Shown here one piece after another: positions 23 through 57,325 of a DNA stretch of 64,000 bases (its first letter is position 1; every line of letters begins with the position of its first letter). The stretch covers positions 45,786 through 109,785 of the forward strand of contig CAZOPF010000001.1 in NCBI GenBank assembly GCA_964581605.1, written 5' to 3'. The notes under the pieces are model-generated. The model searched no databases. It was given only the letters and a program-made list of their open reading frames with translations, and had not been told where the DNA came from. Position numbers and translations under genes: made by a program. The stretch is from an uncultured Ardenticatenaceae bacterium. GTDB lineage: Bacteria; Chloroflexota; Anaerolineae; Promineifilales; Promineifilaceae.

Positions 23-2227
23 ATGATGATCATCTGGCCGGCCTCAGTTTTGGTCCTCTCAGGATTTGGCATTATATTAGGCATGAGCCTGCCCATCCTT
101 GTTATTCTGATCACCGATAGCCTGTTACCCCCAAAAGGAATCACATTGGCGGCCGTCATAGCTACCATTGTGGGGGCGGTGACCGTGTTGATTGATCTAT
201 TCGGGCCGGCAAATCGCACACAGGTCCCTCCGGCCGTGGAAGCATTTTTGCCCGCCATGGTTATAGCCATCATCCTCATTTATGGCCTCTTTATTGCCTA
301 TAATTTTAAGAATTACAGTATGCGTGCCAAGCTGATTACGGCCACGGCCATGGTGTCCATTGTGTCTGTGGTTGCGGTCACTATCATTGTCGGTATTACT
401 ACTCGCAACGCTTTGATTGACCAGGTGGGCAATAACATGCAAAGTCTGGCTGAATCACAGGCGTTGGCGTTGGGCGAGGTATTGTCCCGCCAGATCAATA
501 TCATGGAAACCCTGGCCTTGAATCGGGCTGTGACCGATGCCGTGCAAGCCCGCAATGCGTTTTATGAGGGGCAAACGCCGCAAGAAATTGAAGCGGCGAA
601 TCTGGCATTGAGCCAACAATGGCATAATGCCGACAGCACCGACCGGCTGGTGTTAAGTATTATGAACAACTCTACTTCACAACAGTTGGTGAGCTTCCAG
701 CAAACGTTCCCTGATCATACCCTTCTTTTGCTTACCGACATAAACGGCGTTCTGGTAGCTGCTTCCCAACGGCCGGATCGTTTTGATTATAGTGAAGAAG
801 AATGGTGGCAAAATACCTATTCATCTGGTTTTGCTGCTGTGCATGTTGGCCAGCCTTATGTATCTGAGACTCGTGATGATGTGCTTGTGGATATTGCTGT
901 ACCTGTGCGTACTGTAAACAATACCGGACGTTCAAAGGTTGCGGGCGTACTGCTCACCTCATATAGTCTGGCTTCGGTAGCCGAAATTTTGCGGCAGTCT
1001 GTCTTTGGCGATTCGGGTCATTTTCATCTGCACTTTCCGAATTTCCGGCAGATGAAGTTACATGAAGGCGAAGAAGGAAAGTTGTTGGAATTTATACTTC
1101 CCGACGAAGCAAACATTGTAGATCGCTTGTGGTTCAATAACCTGCCTTTCTTAAACGACTTTTTTGAGGGCGTTCCCAGCCTGGTAAGCCAGGCGCGGGT
1201 GAATACGTTGGCTTATGAACCAAAGGTGGACAGCCTGGGGTGGCGGGTGGTTGCTGTGCAAGATGAAGCTGAGGCTTTGCAACCTGTGGAGCAACAACAG
1301 CGCACCAATATCTTGTTAGGCGTGTTTATTGTGCTGCTGGCTTCAGGGATGGCCGCACTTATTGCCCAGCTTCTTTCCCAACCCATTATCAGGCTGACGA
1401 ATACGGCCGTGCAAGTGGCTGAAGGCGACCTGTCTGCCCGTGCTGTTGTGCAAAGCAATGATGAAATTGGCACATTGGCGACCACCTTTAACCGGATGAC
1501 GGACCAACTGCAAGAATCTATTACAGGGCTGGAACAACGAGTTGGCGAACGTACCCGCGCTTTGACAGCCAGCGTAGAGGTGAGCCGCAGCCTTTCTACC
1601 GTATTAGACCCCGATCAATTGGTAGTGGAAGTGGTTGAACAGGTACGCGCAGCTTTTGGTTATTACTATGTCCAAATCTATCTGTTTGATGATCAACAAA
1701 ACCGGCTGTACATGGTGGGCGGTACTGGCGAAGCGGGGCAGGTTTTGCTGGCACGGGGTCATTCTTTAGCTGCCGGGCAAGGGCTGGTTGGCCGAGCGGC
1801 CGCCACCAATACCCCCGTCTTTATTCCTGATGTCTCTTTAGCACCTGAGTGGAAGCCAAACCCACTGCTGCCGGATACACGGGCGGAAATCACCCTGCCC
1901 ATTGCTATTGGTGAACGGGTTCTGGGTGTGCTAGACGTGCAGCATGATGTGTCTGATGGATTGGTTGAAGAAGATGTTCAGGTGTTGCAATCGGTGGCTT
2001 ATCAGGTGGCTATTGCCATCCAAAATGCCCAGTCATTTGACCAGGCGCGTAAGCAGGCAGAACGCGAAGCGATGATTAACGCAATTAACCAGAAAATCCA
2101 AAGCGCCACCTCAGTAATGGCCGTGTTACAAATTGCAGCCGAAGAATTGGGACATGTGTTCGATGAACAAAAGACCAGCGTCCAGCTTTTTAATCCGGCA
2201 CAAAAAGCAAACGGGAACGGCCGTTAA
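23..2227 (+). CDS. Membrane sensor protein: Cache-like extracytoplasmic domain, HAMP, GAF and a conserved C-terminal tail; no catalytic output domain
   Basis: 734-aa ORF from ATG 23. N-terminal TM helices are followed by a ~330-aa loop homologous to the N-terminus of the 2957-aa neighbour (EEWWQNTY vs QEAWWQAAY), then a second TM. HAMP-like PIIRLTNTAVQVAEGDLSARAVVQSNDEIGTLATTFNRMTDQL. GAF signature WKPNPLLPDTRAEITLPI..GERVLGVLDVQH. The promoter lies off-window. Confidence 0.85.
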   Translation: MMIIWPASVLVLSGFGIILGMSLPILVILITDSLLPPKGITLAAVIATIVGAVTVLIDLFGPANRTQVPPAVEAFLPAMVIAIILIYGLFIAYNFKNYSMRAKLITATAMVSIVSVVAVTIIVGITTRNALIDQVGNNMQSLAESQALALGEVLSRQINIMETLALNRAVTDAVQARNAFYEGQTPQEIEAANLALSQQWHNADSTDRLVLSIMNNSTSQQLVSFQQTFPDHTLLLLTDINGVLVAASQRPDRFDYSEEEWWQNTYSSGFAAVHVGQPYVSETRDDVLVDIAVPVRTVNNTGRSKVAGVLLTSYSLASVAEILRQSVFGDSGHFHLHFPNFRQMKLHEGEEGKLLEFILPDEANIVDRLWFNNLPFLNDFFEGVPSLVSQARVNTLAYEPKVDSLGWRVVAVQDEAEALQPVEQQQRTNILLGVFIVLLASGMAALIAQLLSQPIIRLTNTAVQVAEGDLSARAVVQSNDEIGTLATTFNRMTDQLQESITGLEQRVGERTRALTASVEVSRSLSTVLDPDQLVVEVVEQVRAAFGYYYVQIYLFDDQQNRLYMVGGTGEAGQVLLARGHSLAAGQGLVGRAAATNTPVFIPDVSLAPEWKPNPLLPDTRAEITLPIAIGERVLGVLDVQHDVSDGLVEEDVQVLQSVAYQVAIAIQNAQSFDQARKQAEREAMINAINQKIQSATSVMAVLQIAAEELGHVFDEQKTSVQLFNPAQKANGNGR

Positions 2228-2246
2228 CCGGATTTGAGGAATACTC

Positions 2247-4739
2247 ATGCGCACACGAATGAAGGCATTCTTAGCACCCCCCGTTTTTCCAGATGATGAA
2301 GACAAAAGCCGTATTGCCAGTCTGCTCAATATCATCTTGTTGGGCCTCCTTTGTTTCATGGGAGTCATCGTACTCACGACCCTCTTTACCAACCCCGCCC
2401 CTGGCTCGTTGTTGGTGAATAGTACAACACTGACAATCGCCATTTTCTTGTATTATCTGTTCCGGCGCGGCCATGTTTTTTTGGTCAGCACACTGACCAT
2501 CACTATCTTCTGGTCTGTTTTAGCTTTCCTCACCTTTTTTGGTGGCGGGCTAACATTGTCCATTGTCACCAGTTACTTTGTGATATTGGTTATGGCGGCC
2601 GCCCTGTTGGGCCAAACCGCTACAATCCTTGTTGCCGCTGCCTCTCTGGTGGTCTGGACAATAGTGGGCATTTTGCAGATAAACGGACAATTGCCCGAAT
2701 CCATAACCCCCTACAATCTGGCAACAGATATAGGCGGTACATTTGGCAGCCTGATCATCTGTGCCCTCATCCTTTACCTGACTGTTAGAAACCTGAACCA
2801 ATCCCTGGCCAATGAACGTGAGAGCAATCAGCGGCTTTATGTTTATCAATCTCAGCTTGAAGAACGTGTGCGTTCCCGCACACATATTCTGGCACTGGCG
2901 GCGGAAATTGGCCGTGATCTATCCCAGGTGCGTGATGTAGAAGATTTATTGCGTGGTGCTGCTAACAGTATTTATAAAGGATTTGGTTTATATCATGTCC
3001 AGATTTATCTGGTAGATGCTTCCGGGCAAAATCTGGTCTTGCGGGCCGGTACGGGTTCGGTAGGTCAGGAATTACGCTCGCGTGGGCACAGCCTTCCCCT
3101 GAATGCAGCCTCAACAAATGGGGCCGCGGCAATCAATCGTCAGGCTGTAATTGTGGCGGATACGGCCTTGAGCCTTACTTTCCGCCCTAATCCTTTGCTG
3201 CCAGAAACCCGTTCAGAGATGGCCGTACCGCTCATTGCCAGCGATATGGTTGTAGGTGTACTGGATTTGCAAAGCGCACAACCACATGCCTTTTCCACTG
3301 ACAACCTGGGCGCGTTTGAAATTTTGGCCGGGCAGTTAGCCATTGCTATTGAAAACGCCCGCCTGATTCGTGATACCAGCCAGGCACGGACTGAATTAGA
3401 AGCCCGGGTTCGGCAATCGGCCCGTACGGACTGGAATCAATATCTGGATGCCATTCGTCATGGGGAACGAATAGGTTTTGTATACAACGCTGGTGCATTG
3501 TCACCAATTTCAGAGTCAATAATGGAATACGGCCGTGCCCAAACTGTGCCTATTAAACTGGCGGGCGAAGAGATTGGCACGATAGCGTTGGAGGAAACAG
3601 TTGCAGAATTATCGGCGGCTGATAGAGAGATGATGAATGCTATTGCCCGTCAGGTGAGCCAACAAATTGAGAATTTGCGGCTGTTAGAAGAAGCCGAGCG
3701 CTATCGCCGTGAAGCTGAAGAAGCCGCTCATCGCCTGATTCGTGAGGGGTGGGCGGATGTGTGGCAGGCGGGAAAGGATATGGGATTTGTGTATGACCAG
3801 ACGGCCGTGCAGCCATTACCCGATATGCCCGATATGGCCGCCGATGTTGTGGTGCCGCTTGCCGTTCAAGGTGAGGTAATTGGTCAACTGGAATTGGCCG
3901 GTATTGCCGCCGATGATGCCGAGACGAAGGAATTGGTAACGGCCGTAGCTGCGCGCCTCAGTGCCCATCTGGAAAACCTGCGCCTCACGGTTCAAACAGA
4001 AGAAGCTCTTTCGGAAGCCAGGCAGCGCACGGCGGAGTTAAACATTCTCAATGAAATGGAGGTGGCGTTTGCCGCTGCCCGCGAGACCGACGAGATGCTG
4101 GCACTCATCCACACCTACGCCTCCCGCCTGATCCGTCCTACCGAAAACCTATATATTGCTCTTTATGATGAAGCTCAGGACGAGATAGTCATCTACCTGT
4201 ATTATAAACCCGGCGAGATAGTCATGTCAGACAAAGTAGAAAATATCATTCGTCGCCGCAGCGGTAATGGAGTGACGGAATATGTGATGCGTACACGCAA
4301 GCCCTTGCTGATAAATGGCGATATGACGGCCGTAGCGGCTGAAATGGGCTTTGATGCTATTGGCGCCCGTTCCCAATCCTGGATGGGCGCTCCTTTAGTT
4401 GTTGGTGATCATGTGTTGGGAGTGGTAGCTTTACAGAGTTTTAGCACCCCTCATTTATATGGTGAATACCAGTTGGAATTGCTGACAGCCATTGCCAGCG
4501 GTGCGGCTATCGCCCTGGAAAATATACATCTGCTGCAACAGGTGCAGTCGCGTGCCCGCCAGGAACAGATTTTGCGGGAAGTGACGGCACGGGTCTACAC
4601 GGCCGTTGATGCCGAATCCATTCTGCGCACGGCCGCGCAGGAATTGAACCTCCACCTGGGGCTGGAAACCTTTATCTACCTGGAAGAACAAACCGAACCT
4701 GATATCGTCGCTGCCAATGGTGGTAATGGACACCACTAG
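2247..4739 (+). CDS. Multi-TM, multi-GAF sensor protein without an output domain
   Basis: 830-aa ORF with GAGGAA about 6 nt upstream of ATG 2247. Hydrophobic N-terminal ~190 aa with several TM helices. GAF (RPNPLLPETRSEMAVPLIASDMVVGVLDLQS). A REGW-type module (LIREGWADVW..GFVYDQ..VVVPLAVQGEVIGQLEL). A second GAF type (SWMGAPLVVGDHVLGVVALQSF). Tail ILREVTARVYTAVDAESILRTAAQEL. Confidence 0.85.
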   Translation: MRTRMKAFLAPPVFPDDEDKSRIASLLNIILLGLLCFMGVIVLTTLFTNPAPGSLLVNSTTLTIAIFLYYLFRRGHVFLVSTLTITIFWSVLAFLTFFGGGLTLSIVTSYFVILVMAAALLGQTATILVAAASLVVWTIVGILQINGQLPESITPYNLATDIGGTFGSLIICALILYLTVRNLNQSLANERESNQRLYVYQSQLEERVRSRTHILALAAEIGRDLSQVRDVEDLLRGAANSIYKGFGLYHVQIYLVDASGQNLVLRAGTGSVGQELRSRGHSLPLNAASTNGAAAINRQAVIVADTALSLTFRPNPLLPETRSEMAVPLIASDMVVGVLDLQSAQPHAFSTDNLGAFEILAGQLAIAIENARLIRDTSQARTELEARVRQSARTDWNQYLDAIRHGERIGFVYNAGALSPISESIMEYGRAQTVPIKLAGEEIGTIALEETVAELSAADREMMNAIARQVSQQIENLRLLEEAERYRREAEEAAHRLIREGWADVWQAGKDMGFVYDQTAVQPLPDMPDMAADVVVPLAVQGEVIGQLELAGIAADDAETKELVTAVAARLSAHLENLRLTVQTEEALSEARQRTAELNILNEMEVAFAAARETDEMLALIHTYASRLIRPTENLYIALYDEAQDEIVIYLYYKPGEIVMSDKVENIIRRRSGNGVTEYVMRTRKPLLINGDMTAVAAEMGFDAIGARSQSWMGAPLVVGDHVLGVVALQSFSTPHLYGEYQLELLTAIASGAAIALENIHLLQQVQSRARQEQILREVTARVYTAVDAESILRTAAQELNLHLGLETFIYLEEQTEPDIVAANGGNGHH

Positions 4740-8388: not shown

Positions 8389-11300
8389 ATGACTCAACTA
8401 AATCAAGAACTGGAAAACGCATCTGCGGAAGAAGCCAAACGAGCCAATCGCGCTTTTCGTTTGTTGTTAGCTATCGCCATCATCGTGGGGTTGGCGGCTT
8501 CCATCATTTTTTTGCGTCAGCTAGGAGATGGCGATGATGATTTTAGCGATCTGCTAGAACCAGGCCTGGGTATCATAGCTGCCGTGCTGATTGGCCTGGG
8601 AGCTTTTCTGGCCCGAAAAGGCCAGGTAACGCTGGCCCTGAGTGTGGTAGCCATTGTATTGTTTGGCTTAGACCTCATCCTTATCACCCGGCTGTCTGAA
8701 GTTGGCTTGCCTCTGACTATTTCTCTTACTTTGATACTTGTGTTGTTGTCTAGCCAGACATTACCGGCCAAAACCGTGACCTGGGGCGTTGTGATCACCT
8801 TCCTCGTCGGCGGTGCGTTGATCATTTTGGATTTGTTTTGGCCAACAGAACGGGGCGGTATAGCGGTTGTAGACCTGAGGATTGTTTACATGGCGGCCGT
8901 GAGCCTCTTTATTATCACCTTTGTTGTGGCGGTTCGGCAGTTTCCGACTTACTCGCTTCGTACCAAACTCGTGTCGGCGGCCGTCAGCCTGGTTATCATT
9001 ACCGTGATATTAACGACTGTTGTGGTTAATAACATCACCCGCCGTAATCTGATCAACCAGCTAAACAAACAATTTGATACCCTCAGTGCTTCCCAGGCTT
9101 CGGCCGTGAGCGAACTACTCAGCCGGGAAGTGAATGTGTTGCAGGCCTTTAGCCTGGACAGCGGCCTGGCCGGCCTTATCCGCAGCAACAATCGGGAGTA
9201 TGCGGGCACAGAAGCAGAAATTCGTACCATCATTGACCAGCAAAATGCCGAATGGTTAACTACTCCCGCCGGGCAAGGCATTGTGAACCAATATACTAAC
9301 AATGCCACGTCCAGCATCCTGCGAAACTACCAGTATAACTTCCCGGAAAATGTGGATACATTGGTTACAAACCGTTACGGCGCGTTGGTGGGCGTCACCA
9401 GCCAGACGGGATTATTTGACCACAGCCAGGAAGCATGGTGGCAAGCGGCATATAACAACGGGCAGGGCGCTGTTTATATTGGCATACCAGAACTTAACGA
9501 GGATACAGCCATTTTGGGTATTCCCATTGCCATGCCGATTTATTCCGGTGTAGAAGTCATTGGCATCTTGCGTACAACCCTGACTTTGGGGCAACTGCGT
9601 GAATTGTTAACCGAGACGGGCGAGTTGGGAGAATCGGTACAAAGCGATATGTTGTTTGGCAACCTGAGGCTGCATGATGAGGACGACCATGCAGTCGGTG
9701 AAGAACATCTGGTACCTATAGACATTGATCCGGCTGTGTTGGCGGCCCTGCGTGATAACCAGACGCCTAATGTGATTGGCGAAGTGGAAGGCGTAGACAG
9801 CCTGATACATGAGTCGCCTATCAGTACGTCTGGGCTTATTCCGGCTGTGGATGCTTTGGGTTGGTCTATTGTTATCCACCAGCCGGAACAGGATGCTCTG
9901 GCGGCGGTGGAAGCGCAGGAGCAGGTGAGCGTGGTGTTGGCGTTAACGGCCGTGGCTGTGGGCAGCTTGCTGGCGGCTTATTTTGCACGGCTATTTACCG
10001 GCCCCATCAACCGACTGACGGACACGGCCGTGATCATTGCCGCCGGCGATCTGAACCGGCAGGCCCCGGTGGAAACTCAGGACGAAATTGGTGTTCTGGC
10101 GCAGGCTTTTAACAACATGACCGGGCAGTTGCGGGCCTTTATTGGTTCACTGGAAAGCCGTGTGGCTGACCGTACCCAGGCGCTAGCCACCAGCACAGAG
10201 GTCAGCCGCCGCCTCTCCACCATATTGAACCTGGATGAATTAGTCAACGAGGTTGTAAACCAGACCCGTGATGCGTTCCACTATTACCACGCCCAGATTT
10301 ATTTATTTGACGCCACCAAACTGTATTTGTTGATGGCCGGGGGCACAGGGCAGGCTGGGCAAGATATGTTGGCGGCCGGGCATAAACTGCGCATCAGCCA
10401 GGGGGTGGTGGGCCGGGCCGCGGCCACCAACCAGGTAGTGCTCATCCCCGACGTAAGCCAGGATTCAAACTGGCTGCCCAACCCGCTGCTGCCGGACACA
10501 AAAGCAGAAGCTGCTATTCCCATTACGTTGGGGAATGAGGTGCTGGGCGTGCTGGATGTGCAGCATCATGTGGTTAATGGGTTGACGGAAGAAAGCGTGG
10601 CTTTGCTGCAATCTATTGCCAATCAGGTGGCCGTTGCTATTCAAAACGCGCAGCAAGTAGAACAGACCAACATTCAGTATGATGTGGCGTCTGAACTAAC
10701 CCAGGCCAGCCAACCCGAACAAATTTTGGAAGCAGCCAGCAGCTACGGCCGTCGGCTGGGTGCTACATCTGCTCAACTGCTTTTCATTGAAAATGATGCC
10801 TCGGGGCGGCCTGAATGGGCCGAAGTGCGGGCGGCCTGGTATACCGAAGAAGGTGGCATTCCCACCGGCACCCGCTATTACCTGCCGGACTTTGGCTTTA
10901 CCCCTTTGTGGCTGTCCTCTCCAGAACGGCCGTTGCTGATCACCGATACGACCACGCACGAAGCCATTGTTACAGAACTGCGCCGGTTGTATGCCCAGAT
11001 CAAAACATTGTCTACGGCCATACTACCTTTGTATGCCCAGGGCCGTTGGACCGGTTTGATCATTTTTAGCTGGAATTTCCCGCAGGCATTTACCAGCCGG
11101 GATGAACGGATTTTTACCAACCTGGCCCAGCAGACATTCTCCGTGGTGGAAGCGGTACAGGCCACGCAACGGATTCAAGACGCCCTACAAGAAGCTGAAC
11201 AACTCTACCAGGTTAGCCAGCGCCTCAGCCATGCTATTTCATTGGAAGACGCATTGGTAGCGGCCGTACAGACGGCCATAGACAGCAACGCTGCCAATGC

Positions 11301-30073: not shown

Positions 30074-30081
30074 ATGGATAA

Positions 30082-30112
30082 AGAACCCGGTTTTAATCAG
30101 AAACCGGGTTCT
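30082..30112. terminator. Bidirectional hairpin between the convergent receiver and methyltransferase genes
   Basis: Perfect 12-bp stem AGAACCCGGTTT / AAACCGGGTTCT with a 7-nt loop. The methyltransferase stop codon lies in the loop and its last codons form the right arm. T-richness follows on the + strand. Confidence 0.6.
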
Positions 30113-31284
30113 TCATTTGTGGCAATAATAACTGACGGTTCCCCCTGAATGTGAGTCAAAAACAAAATACGATGATTCTCTTTTGAGCCAGTGAGCCGTA
30201 GCTGCCGTTGTAATTGTTCCGGTTCAATGGGTGAACCGCGCTTTTTAATAGTCACTTGCCCAATCTGGTTTTCGTGCAAATAGCGGCGGAGTTGTTTGAG
30301 TTGAAACGGCCGTACCCCCTCTACCACATACTTCCTGGCAAATGGCGTCTCCTGGGGAATATGGCTAGTCAGATAGGCGATCTCTGCATCAATCTTACTC
30401 GCCTCCAACTGTATGGCTAATGCTTCCACCAGATGCGCCCGAATGATGGCCCGGTCTGGTTCGTATAAATAAGTTCTGACGGCCGTGACTGGAACAGGTG
30501 TTGTCGGTAAATCAGCATCCGTTAGAAAATAACCTTCAGGCAGCAATGTGGCCCGCCTATTGGCGCCGCTGCGCAAATCCCCCATCCACAATATACACTC
30601 CTTCATTTCACCTTCCAGGGAAATAAATTCCGCTTCGGCCGTTGGTGGTATTTCGGCGTAGTTTATGGCCGGGCTGACTTTCACGGCCGTGTGCTGTACC
30701 CATCGTTCCACCAGATTGAGCGGCGGTTGATATTGCTGCACGGAATGAAAGCGACGGCCGTGTTCGTCTCGCCGCGCCGGATCAAAAAAGAGAGCCTCCA
30801 CCGGCAGCGGGGTCAGCTCGAGCAGGTCAGCCTGCAAGGGATGGAACTGCCCCCCATGCCCATACGCCCGCACATTTTCCTGGGCCATGGCCAGCCGCAC
30901 CACATCCCACTCCACCCCCGTCACGTGCGCATGGGCGGCCAACGCCAGCGCATCCCCGCCAATGCCGCACCCCAAATCAGCCACCTCGCGGAAACCGGCG
31001 GCCGCAAACCGTTCTGCCCGGTAATGGGAAATTGTCTCGGCCGATGCCTGTTCTAAAGCGGGGCGGGTGAAAAACATCCGGTCGGCGCGGCTGAATTTGG
31101 CGGCCGCCTGCTGGCGCAAAATGACCGTTTCCAGTACAGCCTGGGCTTTTTCGGGCGGCAATTGTTGGCGCAACTGAGCGGCAATTTGCAGGTGATTATG
31201 GGGCGTGATGGGGGTGGCGGCCGATTCTTTTAGCCAGCGTTCCCCCTCTGGTGAAAGTAAAAATTGTAAGTCATCTAAGGTCAT
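30097..31284 (-). CDS. Class I SAM-dependent methyltransferase, probably an RNA-type MTase with a THUMP-like C-terminal region
   Basis: 395-aa ORF from ATG 31284. SAM-binding motif I VADLGCGIGGDALALA. Motif IV-like LFFDPARRD. No DPPY/NPPY DNA-MTase motif seen. The family assignment beyond class I MTase is from recall. Confidence 0.75.
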   Translation of the reverse strand: MTLDDLQFLLSPEGERWLKESAATPITPHNHLQIAAQLRQQLPPEKAQAVLETVILRQQAAAKFSRADRMFFTRPALEQASAETISHYRAERFAAAGFREVADLGCGIGGDALALAAHAHVTGVEWDVVRLAMAQENVRAYGHGGQFHPLQADLLELTPLPVEALFFDPARRDEHGRRFHSVQQYQPPLNLVERWVQHTAVKVSPAINYAEIPPTAEAEFISLEGEMKECILWMGDLRSGANRRATLLPEGYFLTDADLPTTPVPVTAVRTYLYEPDRAIIRAHLVEALAIQLEASKIDAEIAYLTSHIPQETPFARKYVVEGVRPFQLKQLRRYLHENQIGQVTIKKRGSPIEPEQLQRQLRLTGSKENHRILFLTHIQGEPSVIIATNEEPGF

Positions 31285-31297
31285 GGGTGGGGGGCAA

Positions 31298-31362
31298 CGG
31301 ATGGGAAGCGGATGAGCGGACTGGCGTGCAGTTATCCGTTTATCTGCTCTTTCATCCTCTGC
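31298..31362. repeat. Word-repeat element (GCGGATG / TTATCCG words) in the nuclease-methyltransferase spacer
   Basis: CGGATGGGAAGCGGATGAGCGGA ... TTATCCGTTTATCTGCTCTTTCATCC. The two sides are imperfectly complementary and use the same word family as 33507-33580. Confidence 0.5.
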
Positions 31363-31367
31363 ACTAC

Positions 31368-32213
31368 TTATGGCAGCGCTGGTTCCAGCGGTATGGAGAA
31401 CAGGTCATCCGGTTCGTCGTCAGGAATGGGCACGGCCGTCACGAGCCCCATGTTCGTGCCCATCTCTTGCCGCCCACACAACGCCTGATAGGCACAAACC
31501 CGGCACTGCGCCCGCTCTTCCGTCAGCGGCCAGACGCCACCGGCACTTTGCTGCGCCTCAATCTGGGCCACAATTGCCCTGATCTCTGTCCAGTTTCGCT
31601 CGTGCCATGCCGGGCTGTAAACAAACGTGTGCGGTTTGTCGGGCGCTGCCACGTACCAGTAGGTGAGGCTGATCTGCTCTGGCAGCAGGGGCGCCTGCCC
31701 CTCGCCCCACAACGCCTGCCCACCTTCGGCCAGCATGGCCAGATAGAGCCGGGTTTGCCAGTCATGGCGCAGCATCGTTTCGTCCGGCGGCCGCCCCGTT
31801 TTCCAGTCATACAGATGGGCAAAGGCACGGCCGTCTGATTCCCCAATGATGAGCAGGTCAAAACGGCCATGTAACAAATGCTGACCAATCGGAATGGTAA
31901 GGGTGAGTTCGGGCAAGGTACGGACATGGGGCCTGTGACGGCCGTGCGGCAAGGTCGGCAAAAATCGGGCAAACGTCAGCCACCACCCCCGCAGTGTCCG
32001 GTCGGCAATCGTCGCCGGTTCAATCGTTAGCCCCAGAAAATGGCGCTGCACCAGTTGATGAAACTGCTGCCCCAGCCCCAGCCGCTCCTCATCGGCCACA
32101 GCCAGCGGTGCGGCCGGCCAGGCCGCCTCTTCCAGATACCGCAATTGAAAACGGCGGCGACATTCCAAAAAGGTAGTCAGTTTGCCCCGGCTGAGGAGGA
32201 GAGCGTCGTTCAT
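31368..32213 (-). CDS. Cas4-like PD-(D/E)XK nuclease with a four-Cys (Fe-S type) signature
   Basis: The track ORF (to 32300) reads through a heptamer repeat, so I take ATG 32213 (MNDALLLSRG). Nuclease motifs GRFDLLII and HLYDWKTG (D..D-x-K). QxxxY-like WQTRLYLAML. N-terminal Cys in FLECRRRF plus C-terminal CRVCAYQALC gives C...C-x2-C-x5-C, as in Cas4/AddB. Confidence 0.8.
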   Translation of the reverse strand: MNDALLLSRGKLTTFLECRRRFQLRYLEEAAWPAAPLAVADEERLGLGQQFHQLVQRHFLGLTIEPATIADRTLRGWWLTFARFLPTLPHGRHRPHVRTLPELTLTIPIGQHLLHGRFDLLIIGESDGRAFAHLYDWKTGRPPDETMLRHDWQTRLYLAMLAEGGQALWGEGQAPLLPEQISLTYWYVAAPDKPHTFVYSPAWHERNWTEIRAIVAQIEAQQSAGGVWPLTEERAQCRVCAYQALCGRQEMGTNMGLVTAVPIPDDEPDDLFSIPLEPALP

Positions 32214-32217
32214 GGTG

Positions 32218-32266
32218 GTAAGCAGTGAACAGTAAGCAGTGAACAGTAAGCAGTAAGCAGTGAACG
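32218..32266. repeat. Tandem heptamer array, (GTRARCA)x7
   Basis: GTAAGCA GTGAACA GTAAGCA GTGAACA GTAAGCA GTAAGCA GTGAAC, starting 5 nt upstream of the nuclease start codon on the - strand. The same word family as 57246-57325. One orientation only, so no hairpin. Confidence 0.85.
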
Positions 32267-32333
32267 TTCCCAAGGCACTGAAGCGCGTTTCCCATAACAA
32301 CCTGGGATGCCATCTCCAGGGACCTGGCGGATT

Positions 32334-33203
32334 CTATTCCAGCAACTTTCTCTCTACAGAGGTATACAACTCCTCAAATTCTGATGCCCGGTGCATATCG
32401 GCCGTCAGCGTATTCATGTTCTGCAAAATATCCATCAACCCAGCAATCGTATTTCGCACCCGCGTATACAGGTCAATATCGTCCCGAATCCCCTGCAAAT
32501 TCGCTTGCGAATCAATACTTTTCATCGCTTCGTTCAACTGCTTGATTTTCTCGTCCCAATACTTGATATATTCAATGCGATCCAGCGAGTCATAAATTTT
32601 GGCATCTGGCAGCACCACCGGGAAGATACGGCCGTAAAAATCATTGTGGCTGGCAATCTCCACCAGTTCAAACATGCAGTTCTTGGAGCGCAAATACTTG
32701 TCACTAATCACCGCCACAATCGCCTGCCCGGCTCCGATCTCCTGCATAAACTCCCGGATCAACCCCTTGAACCCCAAATCCCGCTTATCCCGTATCAGCG
32801 TAATGCCTCGCTCCTGAAATGCCTGGTCAATCTGATTCACGATATTCTCGCTGTCGCCGCCCCAGGCATAAGAGACAAACACCTTCTTCTCCCGCATGGG
32901 GGGAGGCGTGGGGGGTAGACCGGGCAGCGGTGGTTTGCCGGGGCCAGGCGGCAGATTGGGTTTGAAGCCATAGGGGGTCAAATCCAGGTGGGGGCGGAGG
33001 GTGGCAACGGCCGTCAGCAATTGCTGCTCCTGCCCCCGTCGTTTGGCGTATCCCTGTAAATCCTGCGCCATCCGGCTCACATTACCCGCCTGCGTAAACA
33101 CCTCACCCCCATCATACCCCAATTCCAGGCATAATTCTTCCAATTCTGTGGCGCTGAAACTGCCCCGGAGTTCCTTAAAAAACAAATTGTAATTGTCTGC
33201 CAT
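32334..33203 (-). CDS. TIR-domain protein with an N-terminal helical adaptor-like domain, a proline-rich linker and a C-terminal helical extension
   Basis: The start is taken at ATG 33203 (MADNYN), with AGGAGG 10 nt upstream. TIR core KKVFVSYAWGGDSE...AIVAVISDKYLRSKNCMFELVEI fits the Y..S.(W)C..EL pattern that contains the catalytic Glu of NADase TIRs. N-terminus FSATELEELCLELGYDGGEVF...AKRRGQEQQLLTAVATLRP. Linker KPNLPPGPGKPPLPGLPPTPPP. Confidence 0.8.
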   Translation of the reverse strand: MADNYNLFFKELRGSFSATELEELCLELGYDGGEVFTQAGNVSRMAQDLQGYAKRRGQEQQLLTAVATLRPHLDLTPYGFKPNLPPGPGKPPLPGLPPTPPPMREKKVFVSYAWGGDSENIVNQIDQAFQERGITLIRDKRDLGFKGLIREFMQEIGAGQAIVAVISDKYLRSKNCMFELVEIASHNDFYGRIFPVVLPDAKIYDSLDRIEYIKYWDEKIKQLNEAMKSIDSQANLQGIRDDIDLYTRVRNTIAGLMDILQNMNTLTADMHRASEFEELYTSVERKLLE

Positions 33204-33231
33204 GTGATGATTACCTCCTGAAAACTTATGG

Positions 33232-33250
33232 CGCGATTTGCCAAATCGCG
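33232..33250. promoter_or_regulatory. 19-bp perfect palindrome (operator-like) between the TIR promoter and its RBS
   Basis: CGCGATTTG-C-CAAATCGCG has 9-bp arms and a 1-nt centre, so an RNA hairpin is sterically unlikely. It lies just downstream of the predicted TSS of the TIR promoter. Confidence 0.4.
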
Positions 33251-33260
33251 TTACGCCGTC

Positions 33261-33288
33261 ACTATACAAACGAAACCCAGGTTGTCAA
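33261..33288 (-). promoter_or_regulatory. Near-consensus sigma70-type promoter for the TIR gene
   Basis: The minus strand reads TTGACA (33288-33283), a 16-nt spacer, then TATAGT (33266-33261). It lies about 60 nt upstream of ATG 33203. Confidence 0.5.
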
Positions 33289-33506
33289 GTAGGGGCAGGC
33301 AACCGGGCAACAAATCCGCCTGCGGTTGGGCCATAATCCCGGTCGCCTCGCCCCACGTTCGCAGAATTTACACCTTTTCCAACCGCCTCGCCCCTACGAT
33401 GGGTGATGGGTGGGGATATGACGGGGATGGAAAAATTTCAGTAGTTCGTCTTCACTCACCCGCCCTTGCAAGGAACGCAAAAGTTCTGTCGGATTCAGGT
33501 TTTTTA

Positions 33507-34063: not shown

Positions 34064-34076
34064 AATCTGTAATTGG

Positions 34077-34125
34077 GTAATTGAGTAATTGGGTAATTGC
34101 CTCAATTACCCAATTACTCAATTAC
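34077..34125. repeat. Perfect 23-bp word-repeat hairpin ((R)GTAATTG words)
   Basis: GTAATTGAGTAATTGGGTAATTG - CCT - CAATTACCCAATTACTCAATTAC. It lies between the ABC ATPase stop (34130) and the next start (34063). An extra word copy sits at 34069-34076. Confidence 0.9.
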
Positions 34126-37816: not shown

Positions 37817-37877
37817 GTAATTATGTAATTGGGTAATTGAAGTAGCCAATTACTCAATTACCCAATTACTCAATTAC
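37817..37877. repeat. Word-repeat hairpin ((R)GTAATTG family), 22 of 24 bp paired
   Basis: GTAATTATGTAATTGGGTAATTGA (37817-37840) pairs with TCAATTACCCAATTACTCAATTAC (37854-37877). The right arm includes the ribF stop codon and its last two codons. It is preceded by CCTTCGG x2. Confidence 0.85.
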
Positions 37878-38796
37878 TAAACTTCCGTACCTGGGCCACA
37901 TCAACATGAATTTGGGCTTTTAGTTCGTCTAGGCCGCTGAATTTCTTTTCGGGGCGGATGTGGGCCAGGAATTCCAGGCAAAGTTCCTGATCATACAGGT
38001 CGTCGTCAAAGTCGAGCAGGTGGGCTTCCACAGTCAGGTGCAGGCCATCCACCGTGGGGCGAACGCCGACGTTGGTGGCAGCCCGGTAAGGCGTTTGCCC
38101 CACCCAGGCGGTAGTGGCATAGACGCCGTTGGCAGGGATGACCTGTTCGGGCCAGTAGGCGGTGTTGGCGGTGGGGAAGCCAATGGTACGGCCGCGCTGA
38201 TCACCCCGGACGACAATGCCACGCAGGCGATACGGCCGTCCCAAACACCCATTGGCCTGTTCAATTTCCCCCGCCTGCAAATGGCGGCGGATGCGGCTGC
38301 TGCTCACCCGTTCCCCCTGCCAGGCAACCATATCGTTCACCAGTTCCACCGTGTACCCTTTCTCCTGCCCTAATGCCCGCAAAAAGGGCACATCCCCTTC
38401 GCGCTGATAACCCAGGGCGAAGTTGCCACCCCATAGCTGGCGCATGTCCAGATAGCGGCAAAGCTGGTCCACAAAATCGGCGGCGCGGGTGTGGCGCACT
38501 TCGTCGTTAAAGGGGTGGGTGATAACCACATCCACGCCACAGTCGGCCAGCCACTGTACCCGGTCTTCCAGAGTGGCGATGTAGTATGGCCCGGTGAGAT
38601 TGCGTAAGACACGCTGGGGATGCGGGAAGAAGGTGAGTACGGCCGTGCGCATCCCCCTCTCTCTGGCCACAGCCACCATGCTTTGCAGGACGGCCTGATG
38701 CCCCAGATGCACACCATCAAACGAGCCGATGGCAACCAGAGTTGGGATGCCATTGGGAACCTCGGACAATTGGTTGACGGTTATAAAATCACTCAT
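37870..38796 (-). CDS. ribF: Bifunctional riboflavin kinase / FAD synthetase
   Basis: 308 aa. N-terminal GSFDGVHLGHQAV nucleotidyltransferase motif. C-terminal kinase motif GRTIGFPTAN. Confidence 0.9.
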   Translation of the reverse strand: MSDFITVNQLSEVPNGIPTLVAIGSFDGVHLGHQAVLQSMVAVARERGMRTAVLTFFPHPQRVLRNLTGPYYIATLEDRVQWLADCGVDVVITHPFNDEVRHTRAADFVDQLCRYLDMRQLWGGNFALGYQREGDVPFLRALGQEKGYTVELVNDMVAWQGERVSSSRIRRHLQAGEIEQANGCLGRPYRLRGIVVRGDQRGRTIGFPTANTAYWPEQVIPANGVYATTAWVGQTPYRAATNVGVRPTVDGLHLTVEAHLLDFDDDLYDQELCLEFLAHIRPEKKFSGLDELKAQIHVDVAQVRKFSN

Positions 38797-39710: not shown

Positions 39711-39737
39711 GGATATTGGGATATTGGGATATTGGAT
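39711..39737. repeat. Tandem octamer array, (GGATATTG)x3 plus a partial unit
   Basis: Three perfect 8-nt units at 39711-39734, starting 4 nt upstream of the truB start codon. They are followed by AATCTC..GAGATT words. Confidence 0.85.
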
Positions 39738-57245: not shown

Positions 57246-57325
57246 CAGTGAACAGTGAACAGTGAACAGTGAGCGGTCAGCAAGAAACACAACTGCTTAC
57301 TGCTCACGGCTCACTGCTCACTAAC
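57246..57325. repeat. Heptamer-word imperfect hairpin (CAGTGAA / CTGCTCA words)
   Basis: CAGTGAA x3, CAGTGAG, CGGTCAG, a loop, then CTGCTTA CTGCTCA CGGCTCA CTGCTCA. About 19 of 22 positions pair between 57261-57282 and 57301-57322. It fills the ATPase-permease spacer. Same word family as 32218-32266. Confidence 0.8.

Follow-up and report, generated by a model that had tools for sequence, protein, structure and literature searches.

A solitary EAD7-TIR gene beside a Cas4-like nuclease and a THUMP-like methyltransferase in an uncultured Ardenticatenaceae bacterium: a probable adaptor-tethered effector that has lost its neighbouring NTPase

The locus considered here lies in 64,000 nucleotides of DNA from an uncultured Ardenticatenaceae bacterium (GenBank assembly GCA_964581605.1, contig CAZOPF010000001.1), a 64-kb stretch called the window throughout; coordinates are window positions, and L numbers designate the loci or genomes compared with it. 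Three minus-strand open reading frames (ORFs), between 33203 and 30097, encode a TIR-domain protein, a nuclease and a methyltransferase. They are placed as in the original prediction, made from the sequence alone, which had taken them together as a candidate conflict or defence locus. Their linkage has held up, being kept in every close relative, but it looks like synteny, and the subject of this work is mainly the TIR gene and the remains of the neighbour that it has lost.

The EAD7-TIR gene (32334-33203, minus strand) is an intact ORF of 289 codons plus stop, whose product has the four-part layout originally described. Its N-terminus had been likened to the effector-associated adaptor domains (EADs) of NTPase-centred conflict systems, and Pfam indeed places EAD7 (PF19960) on residues 9-71 (32991-33179, minus strand) with 32.7 bits against a cut-off of 32, its precomputed annotation gives EAD7 in most close homologues, and a custom EAD7 hidden Markov model (HMM), with orthologues of the protein among its seeds, matched it with E 4.6e-34. 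The TIR domain occupies residues 108-218 (32550-32882, minus strand; Pfam TIR_2, E 8.9e-14, the Pfam TIR family matching as well), and a conserved helical C-terminal extension, delimited from the structural model and from conservation, makes up residues 219-289 (32337-32549, minus strand). The AlphaFold2 model, built from 25 orthologues (mean predicted confidence, pLDDT, 82.7), comprises a helical bundle (2-69), a disordered Pro-rich linker (84-104), the beta/alpha core of the TIR domain (106-197) and long helices (206-288, pLDDT about 90), so that the linker and the helical tail foreseen by eye are both found. The best Foldseek match of the model was the plant protein RUN1 (E 3.8e-4), followed by RPV1, RPP1, L6 and Roq1, and a PDB profile alignment laid NCMFEL on the plant WCLEEL/WCLMEL, so that E179 coincides with the Glu of Roq1 and L6. 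This Glu of the plant 'WCL(E/M)EL' motif we take to be the catalytic Glu of plant TIR NADases. E179 (codon GAA, 32667-32669, minus strand, within the TIR domain; NCMFELVEI) is invariant in 25 of 25 orthologues, which bears out the claim that the Glu at the catalytic position is retained. The helical extension, which always accompanies this TIR subtype, has its own invariant residues in the 25 orthologues, including Y246, R250, M263, N264 and H271. Judged from its sequence, the protein is predicted to be an NAD-cleaving TIR "suicide" enzyme with an EAD7 adaptor, a known kind of bacterial immune effector.

EADs are homotypic couplers, with one copy on a core NTPase and others on effectors, whose genes may adjoin that of the NTPase or lie at another place in the genome; EAD7 is counted among the EADs that recruit effectors (Kaur, Burroughs, Iyer, Aravind 2020, eLife e52696; PMC7159879); the same work linked NTPase-centred conflict systems to a multicellular habit. 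The window protein is built like such an effector, a small terminal helical EAD being fused to an enzymatic domain. A search over 5.8 billion proteins gave 1245 homologues, almost only from metagenome-assembled genomes (MAGs) of Anaerolineae and other Chloroflexota and from filamentous cyanobacteria (Nostoc, Leptolyngbya), that is, with an enrichment in multicellular or filamentous organisms. Full-length EAD7-TIR orthologues come from Anaerolineae/Ardenticatenaceae MAGs. The TIR domain and its tail (residues ~105-289, the TIR+tail module) recur at 57-66% identity in many filamentous cyanobacteria and other Chloroflexota, where the preceding N-termini vary between other EADs, GUN4, FGE, AAA-like, CHAT, REC and none; those of Nostoc are presumably leucine-rich repeats/Roc-COR, a reading made by eye only. 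Homotypic N-terminal partners were found beside TIR-module proteins in at least 18 of 56 loci by single-sequence phmmer, a lower bound because phmmer overlooked known EAD7 pairs. The module had no match in 50,697 phage records and few in megaplasmids. At 39-54% identity it is present on three megaplasmids of Chondrinema litorale (Bacteroidota; NZ_CP111049.1, NZ_CP111044.1 and NZ_CP111053.1), and for one of the plasmid copies the annotated gene is that of a SUMF1/FGE-family enzyme.

In close relatives the gene order is ABC transporter, DUF420, EAD7-TIR, nuclease and methyltransferase, followed on the opposite strand by REC and PAS/GAF kinase genes. Two extra genes stand between DUF420 and EAD7-TIR in L001, L002 and L012 (TIR protein 88% identical to that of the window), in L011 (91%) and in L017 (59%). 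The first encodes a 909-aa EAD7-NACHT-FGE/FGS NTPase (Pfam EAD7 51.8 bits; Walker A motif GDPGSGKST; FGE-sulfatase match with E 9e-55), and the second a 543-aa class I methyltransferase (L001:8296-9927; also in L011, L017 and L003). The 543-aa protein is always encoded between the NACHT-FGE and EAD7-TIR genes; its methyltransferase domain is central, with about 240 unassigned residues on the N-terminal and about 180 on the C-terminal side, and PADLOC finds no system match for it. An EAD7-NACHT gene lies beside the effector in the relatives L001, L011, L017 and L092.

The window retains a relic of the first 18 codons of the EAD7-NACHT-FGE/FGS gene (33443-33497, minus strand). Its 55 nt match the beginning of the NACHT gene of L012, L017 and L011 at 84-85% in blastn. 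Its ATG has become CTG, a stop follows 16 codons past the aligned stretch, and it translates to LNPTELLRSLQGRVSEDEL as against MNQTEILRFLQERVSEDEL; the same state is found in L009 and L010, two metagenome contigs from the Joint Genome Institute (JGI) which belong to the same organism. The adjoining 153 nt (33290-33442, without strand) have no counterpart in the relatives and are read as a deletion scar. Two copies of an 18-mer containing GGGGCGAGGCG (33339-33356 and 33379-33396), found nowhere else in the 64 kb, lie in the scar, and could be leftovers resembling repetitive extragenic palindromes (REP-like) or have been involved in the deletion. Homology picks up at window position 33289, which corresponds to a point 13 nt short of the end of the 543-aa methyltransferase gene in L001. 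In L001 and L012 the place of the scar is taken by some 4.5 kb, with the remainder of the NACHT-FGE gene and the 543-aa methyltransferase gene. The relic alignment and the point at which homology resumes therefore indicate that about 4.5 kb were deleted in the lineage of the window, where the effector now stands alone with only 55 nt of the NTPase neighbour left. The absences originally listed accordingly need one qualification: the window has no CRISPR-like array and no intact NTPase, but the relic lies just outside the coordinates given for the locus. An NTPase with an N-terminal domain of the same family, for which a search of the genome had been proposed, exists in the relatives, whereas in the window only its first codons survive.

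A RAYT/IS200-like gene (Y1 transposase) lies directly upstream of EAD7-NACHT-FGE in L017 (4317-4916, apparently intact), L011 (45-521, cut by the contig end) and L012 (4843-5290, degraded), and the NACHT-FGE and methyltransferase block seems to have arrived separately and then to have been lost again in several lineages. In L011, the closest GTDB relative, the EAD7-NACHT-FGE gene is broken up into three successive ORFs (626-3367), either through pseudogene decay or through an error in the MAG assembly.

The effector gene is preceded by a promoter-like site, TTGACA-16-TATAGT (33261-33288, minus strand), which matches 11 of 12 consensus positions, and by an AGGAGG (33214-33219, minus strand) 10 nt before its ATG. 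The 30-35 nt around the promoter-like site align at 85-87% in the distant relatives L004, L013 and L015, and the alignment spans 110 nt in L011, L012, L014, L016 and L017. The ratio of nonsynonymous to synonymous substitution rates (dN/dS) of the TIR gene is 0.05-0.06 between the window and L011 and L012, and is 0.04 (L013 vs L004) and 0.075 (L014 vs L016) between lineages which both lack the NTPase neighbour. The EAD7-TIR gene is thus under strong purifying selection and has its own conserved promoter, and the low dN/dS together with the promoter-like site kept in all relatives means that the gene is maintained without an adjacent NTPase.

The position upstream of the nuclease has itself a history. 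Eight more distant genomes were sampled through the nuclease (L090-L093 and L174-L177), and in L090-L093, L175 and L176, whose nuclease is 41-57% identical to that of the window, the slot holds an EAD7-CHAT gene. The EAD7 of the TIR protein matches the EAD7 of these syntenic CHAT proteins with 34-48 bits, and the simplest reading of the sequences is that, in the sub-clade of the window, a resident EAD7 had its CHAT exchanged for the TIR+tail module. In some genomes the slot has an EAD7-bearing NTPase beside it, whether NACHT-FGE/FGS, NACHT, or a set made up of MoxR, vWA and STAND-CHAT-EAD7x4. The latter is found in L091 (1-6004), where two genes, one for an AAA protein (MoxR-like) and one whose vWA match (VWA_CoxE) is only faint, precede that of a 1179-aa STAND(NPHP3_N)-CHAT protein. 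This protein has four EAD7 domains in tandem at its C-terminus, and its gene overlaps the nuclease start by 4 nt; the L091 locus looks like a VMAP ternary system. In addition, the effector gene is a mosaic: when the window gene (32334-33203) is compared with those of L014 (4278-5159) and L017 (10001-10885), the dN of the EAD7 part is 0.06-0.10 and that of the TIR+tail part 0.21-0.40, the flanking nuclease being 85-86% identical, and at least three TIR+tail allele types occur behind similar EAD7 domains. The conserved EAD7 in front of a divergent TIR+tail points to recombination at the Pro-rich linker, as expected of conflict genes. L015 encodes a second EAD7 protein (8996-9751, minus strand; 251 aa) with a coiled-coil-like C-terminus, whose gene is divergent from, and adjoins, an EAD7-TIR gene with a longer N-terminal region (9980-11149, plus strand).

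The second gene (31368-32213, minus strand) encodes a stand-alone iron-sulphur (Fe-S) PD-(D/E)XK nuclease of the RecB family, Cas4/AdnB-like and 281 aa long (Pfam PDDEXK_1, E 3.3e-27), its start being set at the ATG at 32213 (MNDALL...) because the orthologues show it so. A metagenome scan, aligning six sequences, provided further members. The cysteine cluster C18...C237-x2-C240-x5-C246 has C18, C237 and C240 invariant and C246 nearly so; D119, D136-W-K138 and Q153..Y157 are invariant too, and the model matches AdnAB best in Foldseek (E 2.3e-7), then Cas4, ACE1 and Exo5, and also AddB. Catalytic motifs, four-Cys cluster and fold are thus those of a RecB-family Fe-S nuclease, and the Cas4-like nuclease that had been predicted downstream of the TIR gene is there. 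With Cas4, AdnB-AddB and Exo5 it has in common the fold, the cluster of four cysteines and the motifs D...D-x-K and Q..Y. Unlike these, it stands alone at 281 aa with no helicase nearby and no CRISPR-like array in the window, and in its clade it is paired with a THUMP-like methyltransferase. It does not belong to CRISPR Cas4 proper, Pfam Cas_Cas4 giving 14.6 bits (cut-off 22.7) and TIGR00372 14.7 (cut-off 65); nor are its flanking genes cas genes, and no cas1/cas2 was seen among the ORFs submitted to domain scanning, a scan which left out those at about 39-64 kb. The family is large, with at least 1000 clusters at 50% identity (E up to 0.001), and the members listed are mostly of about 215-310 aa. 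A sister subfamily (80 metagenome loci, L094-L173; about 280 aa, motif RLQTRVYP) sits in a DNA-repair setting, in the order ~710-aa protein, UvrD-like helicase, nuclease and RecJ, with the helicase upstream in 32 and RecJ downstream in 34 of the 80 loci, where the flanks sufficed; none of the 80 has an EAD7, a TIR or a methyltransferase of the window type nearby. This arrangement points to a split end-processing machine of the AddAB/AdnAB kind in Chloroflexota-like genomes.

A tandem array of 7/14-nt repeats (32218-32266, without strand) directly precedes the start codon of the nuclease. Heptamer arrays of differing sequence occupy the same position in L011, L012, L015, L016 and L092, and no obvious Shine-Dalgarno sequence is seen at these arrays of the relatives. 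The window has further tandem arrays of 7-8 nt (34069-34099, 37846-37878, 39711-39735 and 57246-57272), the units including GTAAGCA/GTGAACA, GTAATTGG, CAATTACT and CAGTGAA; three of the arrays (32218-32266, 34069-34099 and 37846-37878) are found at gene starts or a short way upstream of them. Such short arrays recall the STRR repeats known from filamentous cyanobacteria. As a possible terminator, a hairpin in the gap from the TIR gene to the nuclease gene was discarded, since in most relatives it folded no better than shuffled sequences.

The third gene (30097-31284, minus strand) encodes a class I S-adenosylmethionine (SAM) methyltransferase with a C-terminal THUMP-like domain, of the PG_1098/TGS1-like type (Thump_like 68.3 bits against a cut-off of 26, E 5e-19; Methyltransf_25 29 against 27; Methyltransf_15, for cap guanine-N2, also matching). 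The nearest solved structures are PDB 3LL7 (E 6.9e-13, residues 42-369) and TGS1, and the succession of a class I SAM core and a THUMP-like C-terminal domain is that of PG_1098. A restriction-modification role is not indicated, as the protein resembles 3LL7/TGS1 and not the DNA methyltransferase families. The caveat that this enzyme looks RNA-type and may be a housekeeping neighbour was well placed, the latter being most likely. A terminator-like 16-bp hairpin (30078-30116, minus strand) overlaps its stop codon, at the convergence with the REC gene.

Upstream of the REC gene, almost 30 kb (23-29544) are filled with consecutive giant sensor genes of up to 2957 aa; the genes of these first 29.5 kb encode GAF/PAS/HAMP sensor proteins, many with Cache domains, and the array is syntenic in relatives. 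Searches of six-frame translations with phmmer, tblastn and the custom HMM revealed no second EAD7 in the window and no NACHT-like/STAND NTPase besides the relic. Among the domain-scanned ORFs there was no MoxR, vWA or VMAP gene, and no ThsA; neither cas1/cas2 nor ThsA was looked for directly at about 39-64 kb, so that the absence originally claimed for these genes holds for the scanned part. Rfam had no credible match over 29.5-34.2 kb, and NCBIfam none above cut-off. PADLOC, one of the checks that had been proposed, gave only weak domain-level matches for the three proteins (SAVED_TIR, bSEFIR), with no ThsB and no system assigned, and the same outcome, weak domain-level matches and no system, for the NACHT, 543-aa methyltransferase and CHAT proteins of relatives; Foldseek, another of them, bore out the TIR and Cas4/AdnAB-like folds.

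The TIR half of the effector gene had been described as AT-rich, and this as a hint of horizontal acquisition. Numerically the description is correct, since the TIR+tail part has a guanine-plus-cytosine (GC) content of 0.484 against a window mean of 0.545 (standard deviation 0.046), which is the 6th percentile of 450-nt windows. Nevertheless, GC at third codon positions (GC3) is 0.651 for TIR+tail and 0.654 for the EAD7 part, within the 0.52-0.71 of host genes, and the deficit resides in codon positions 1 and 2. The low GC therefore reflects amino-acid composition and not foreign codon usage. Acquisition inferred from base composition was thus rejected, GC3 being host-like, with no phage match and few megaplasmid matches; moreover, the EAD7-TIR gene is syntenic in relatives whose TIR protein is only 59-64% identical to that of the window. 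A recent horizontal acquisition of the gene is not supported, and the picture is one of inheritance in place across relatives.

The original prediction had found no defence system that it could name. A known setting does exist, namely the EAD-coupled effectors of STAND NTPase-FGS and vWA-MoxR systems (PMC7159879, PMC8195603). STAND-FGS proteins with an N-terminal EAD7 have been described, a bDLD3 STAND-FGS protein is paired with a TIR protein bearing the same adaptor, and EAD7 is among the adaptors that replace bDLD3 (Kaur, Iyer, Burroughs, Aravind 2021, eLife e70394; PMC8195603). The present locus resembles these systems in the N-terminal EAD7 fused to TIR, in the EAD7-NACHT-FGE/FGS gene next door in relatives, in its filamentous Chloroflexota and cyanobacterial hosts, in the TIR/CHAT swaps and in the mosaic combinations of EADs and effectors. 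It differs in that the window effector is solitary, its NTPase neighbour having been deleted, that the two neighbouring EAD7 copies of relatives have no detectable similarity, that relatives have a 543-aa methyltransferase, possibly an addition to the described set, between NTPase and effector, and that the window locus is stably syntenic, not mobile. With the vWA-MoxR-VMAP ternary systems (Kaur et al. 2020) it has in common the set found at the same slot in L091, with its MoxR-like gene, faint vWA match and STAND-CHAT protein with four EAD7, and an EAD7 of the same Pfam family in the window TIR protein; unlike them, the window has no MoxR, vWA or VMAP among its scanned ORFs, and its effector is TIR, not CHAT.

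The NADase TIR domains of the plant NLR receptors RUN1, RPP1, L6 and Roq1 are the best structural and profile matches and share the 'S..C..EL' context with its Glu, but identity is about 20%, the bacterial protein has a long helical extension specific to its family, and its TIR would be joined to an NTPase through a separate adaptor and not by fusion. As with the plant TIRs, activation is expected to be by induced proximity. In Thoeris (ThsB TIR plus ThsA), too, the enzymatic part of the immune system is a TIR protein; here, however, the TIR gene has a PD-(D/E)XK nuclease, a methyltransferase and DUF420 as neighbours, no ThsA (SIR2/SLOG) occurs beside it or among the scanned ORFs, PADLOC gave no ThsB match, and an EAD7 adaptor is foreign to the Thoeris architecture.

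Taken together, the 289-aa protein is probably an adaptor-tethered TIR effector of the EAD-coupled NTPase conflict systems, left solitary by the deletion of its neighbour and served in trans, with the nuclease and the methyltransferase as mere neighbours. The EAD7 helical bundle would dock, by EAD-EAD contact, on an EAD7-bearing sensor (a STAND NTPase or VMAP) encoded outside the window; oligomerisation of the sensor would bring the TIR domains together, by induced proximity, and an E179-dependent cleavage of NAD+ would then deplete NAD+ or release a signalling nucleotide, so that the infected cell stops growing or dies. Several observations weigh against this proposal. The Pfam score for EAD7 barely exceeds its threshold (32.7 vs 32). 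Neighbouring EAD copies are usually most similar to each other (Kaur et al.), whereas the EAD7 of the TIR protein and that of the adjacent NACHT protein gave E 0.59 in one comparison and 0 bits in another (L012, L017), the former being nearer to the EAD7 of the syntenic CHAT proteins of other genomes; the deleted NACHT-FGE protein may therefore not be the cognate partner, and the NACHT-FGE and methyltransferase block may be a separate mobile insertion marked by the RAYT gene. As the 64-kb window holds no EAD7-bearing partner, we can only infer action in trans, and NADase activity is predicted from sequence and model. Finally, the three genes share one strand with junctions of -4 to 187 nt in 15 genomes, the window included, behind a single conserved promoter and with no clear terminator between them, which leaves room for a shared function of effector, nuclease and methyltransferase.

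This last point leads to the rather unlikely alternative that the three genes form one functional conflict operon, in which nuclease and methyltransferase sense or process invader nucleic acid and the effector executes. The arrangement itself speaks for it: effector, nuclease and methyltransferase are adjacent on one strand in the window and in 8 of 8 distinct TIR-bearing relatives, an EAD7 effector stands upstream of the nuclease-methyltransferase pair in all of these and in 6 of the 8 more distant genomes, with a single exception to immediate adjacency, and the linkage spans nuclease identities of 41-100% and survives the CHAT-to-TIR swap. The genes are tightly packed, overlapping by 4 nt in L091 and L175 and by 1 nt in L004 and L093, and a clear terminator-like hairpin follows only the methyltransferase; neither gap between the three genes has a site comparable to that at 30078-30116, and elsewhere on the minus strand of this stretch only a weak stem of 5 bp, within the nuclease ORF (32053-32041), was matched. 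Against this, L174 and L177, the most distant genomes sampled (nuclease 35-38% identical), keep nuclease, methyltransferase, REC and kinase together with no EAD7, CHAT or TIR at the block, and with a glycerol-3-phosphate-dehydrogenase-like (DAO) gene on the other strand between nuclease and methyltransferase. Conversely, neither gene was near the TIR+tail module at any of 72 other loci, within flanks as fetched (up to 10 kb where the contig was long enough). The custom HMM found no EAD7, the sole known coupling device of such systems, on nuclease or methyltransferase; ABC transporter, REC and kinase genes, which are clearly unrelated, are equally syntenic; the sister nucleases lie in a helicase-RecJ repair context; and PADLOC recognised no system. 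Since the pair occurs without the effector in L174/L177, is missing at the 72 loci, carries no EAD7 and has equally syntenic flanks, the two genes appear as old neighbours and not as components. A better explanation is that they belong to an ancient block of synteny together with REC, histidine kinase and ABC transporter genes, most likely as housekeeping neighbours that are probably co-transcribed with the effector, and the association is probably one of synteny. It is quite unlikely, on the same evidence, that an EAD7 effector (TIR or CHAT), nuclease and RNA-type methyltransferase constitute a three-component conflict module of an undescribed type in Ardenticatenales-type Chloroflexota; if they did, nuclease and methyltransferase would sense nucleic acid or mark self, and an exchangeable EAD7 effector would kill.

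Two other alternatives concern the effector itself. It is unlikely, though consistent with its stability in a housekeeping region over deep divergence, unlike mobile defence islands, that EAD7-TIR is a vertically inherited regulator of the lineage core, governing programmed cell death or NAD+ signalling in filamentous Chloroflexota instead of acting against phages, and working alone by EAD7 self-association or with resident cellular partners. Strong purifying selection, a conserved promoter of its own and the multicellular habit tied to such systems (Kaur et al.) would suit this role. Nevertheless, the TIR+tail alleles have been swapped by recombination, as the dN contrast with EAD7 indicates, CHAT and TIR effectors have been exchanged, and NTPase genes were repeatedly gained and lost beside the effector; these are hallmarks of conflict-driven diversification, and as such argue against a core regulator. 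A decaying orphan, that is, a non-functional leftover of the deleted system, is in turn very improbable: the adjacent NTPase and the 543-aa methyltransferase are gone, the relic has lost its start codon and the NACHT gene is in three ORFs in L011, but the effector ORF is intact with a good ribosome-binding site and promoter, retains all catalytic and structural invariants, and evolves with a dN/dS of about 0.05, which is low also between lineages that both lack the NTPase neighbour.

With the effector read as adaptor-tethered and served in trans, the locus overturns no current view; it offers a natural example of the predicted "EAD principle", in which the effector has been kept and the neighbouring NTPase lost, and the solitary EAD7-TIR makes recruitment in trans by an EAD7 NTPase encoded elsewhere directly testable. 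The long, vertically inherited effector slot, with its CHAT-to-TIR exchange and its shuffling at the linker, would be useful for studying how death-fold-like adaptors of bacteria rewire immune effectors. Moreover, the locus draws attention to a widespread, uncharacterised TIR subtype, which has a helical extension of its own that is conserved and which resembles the TIR domains of plant NLRs.

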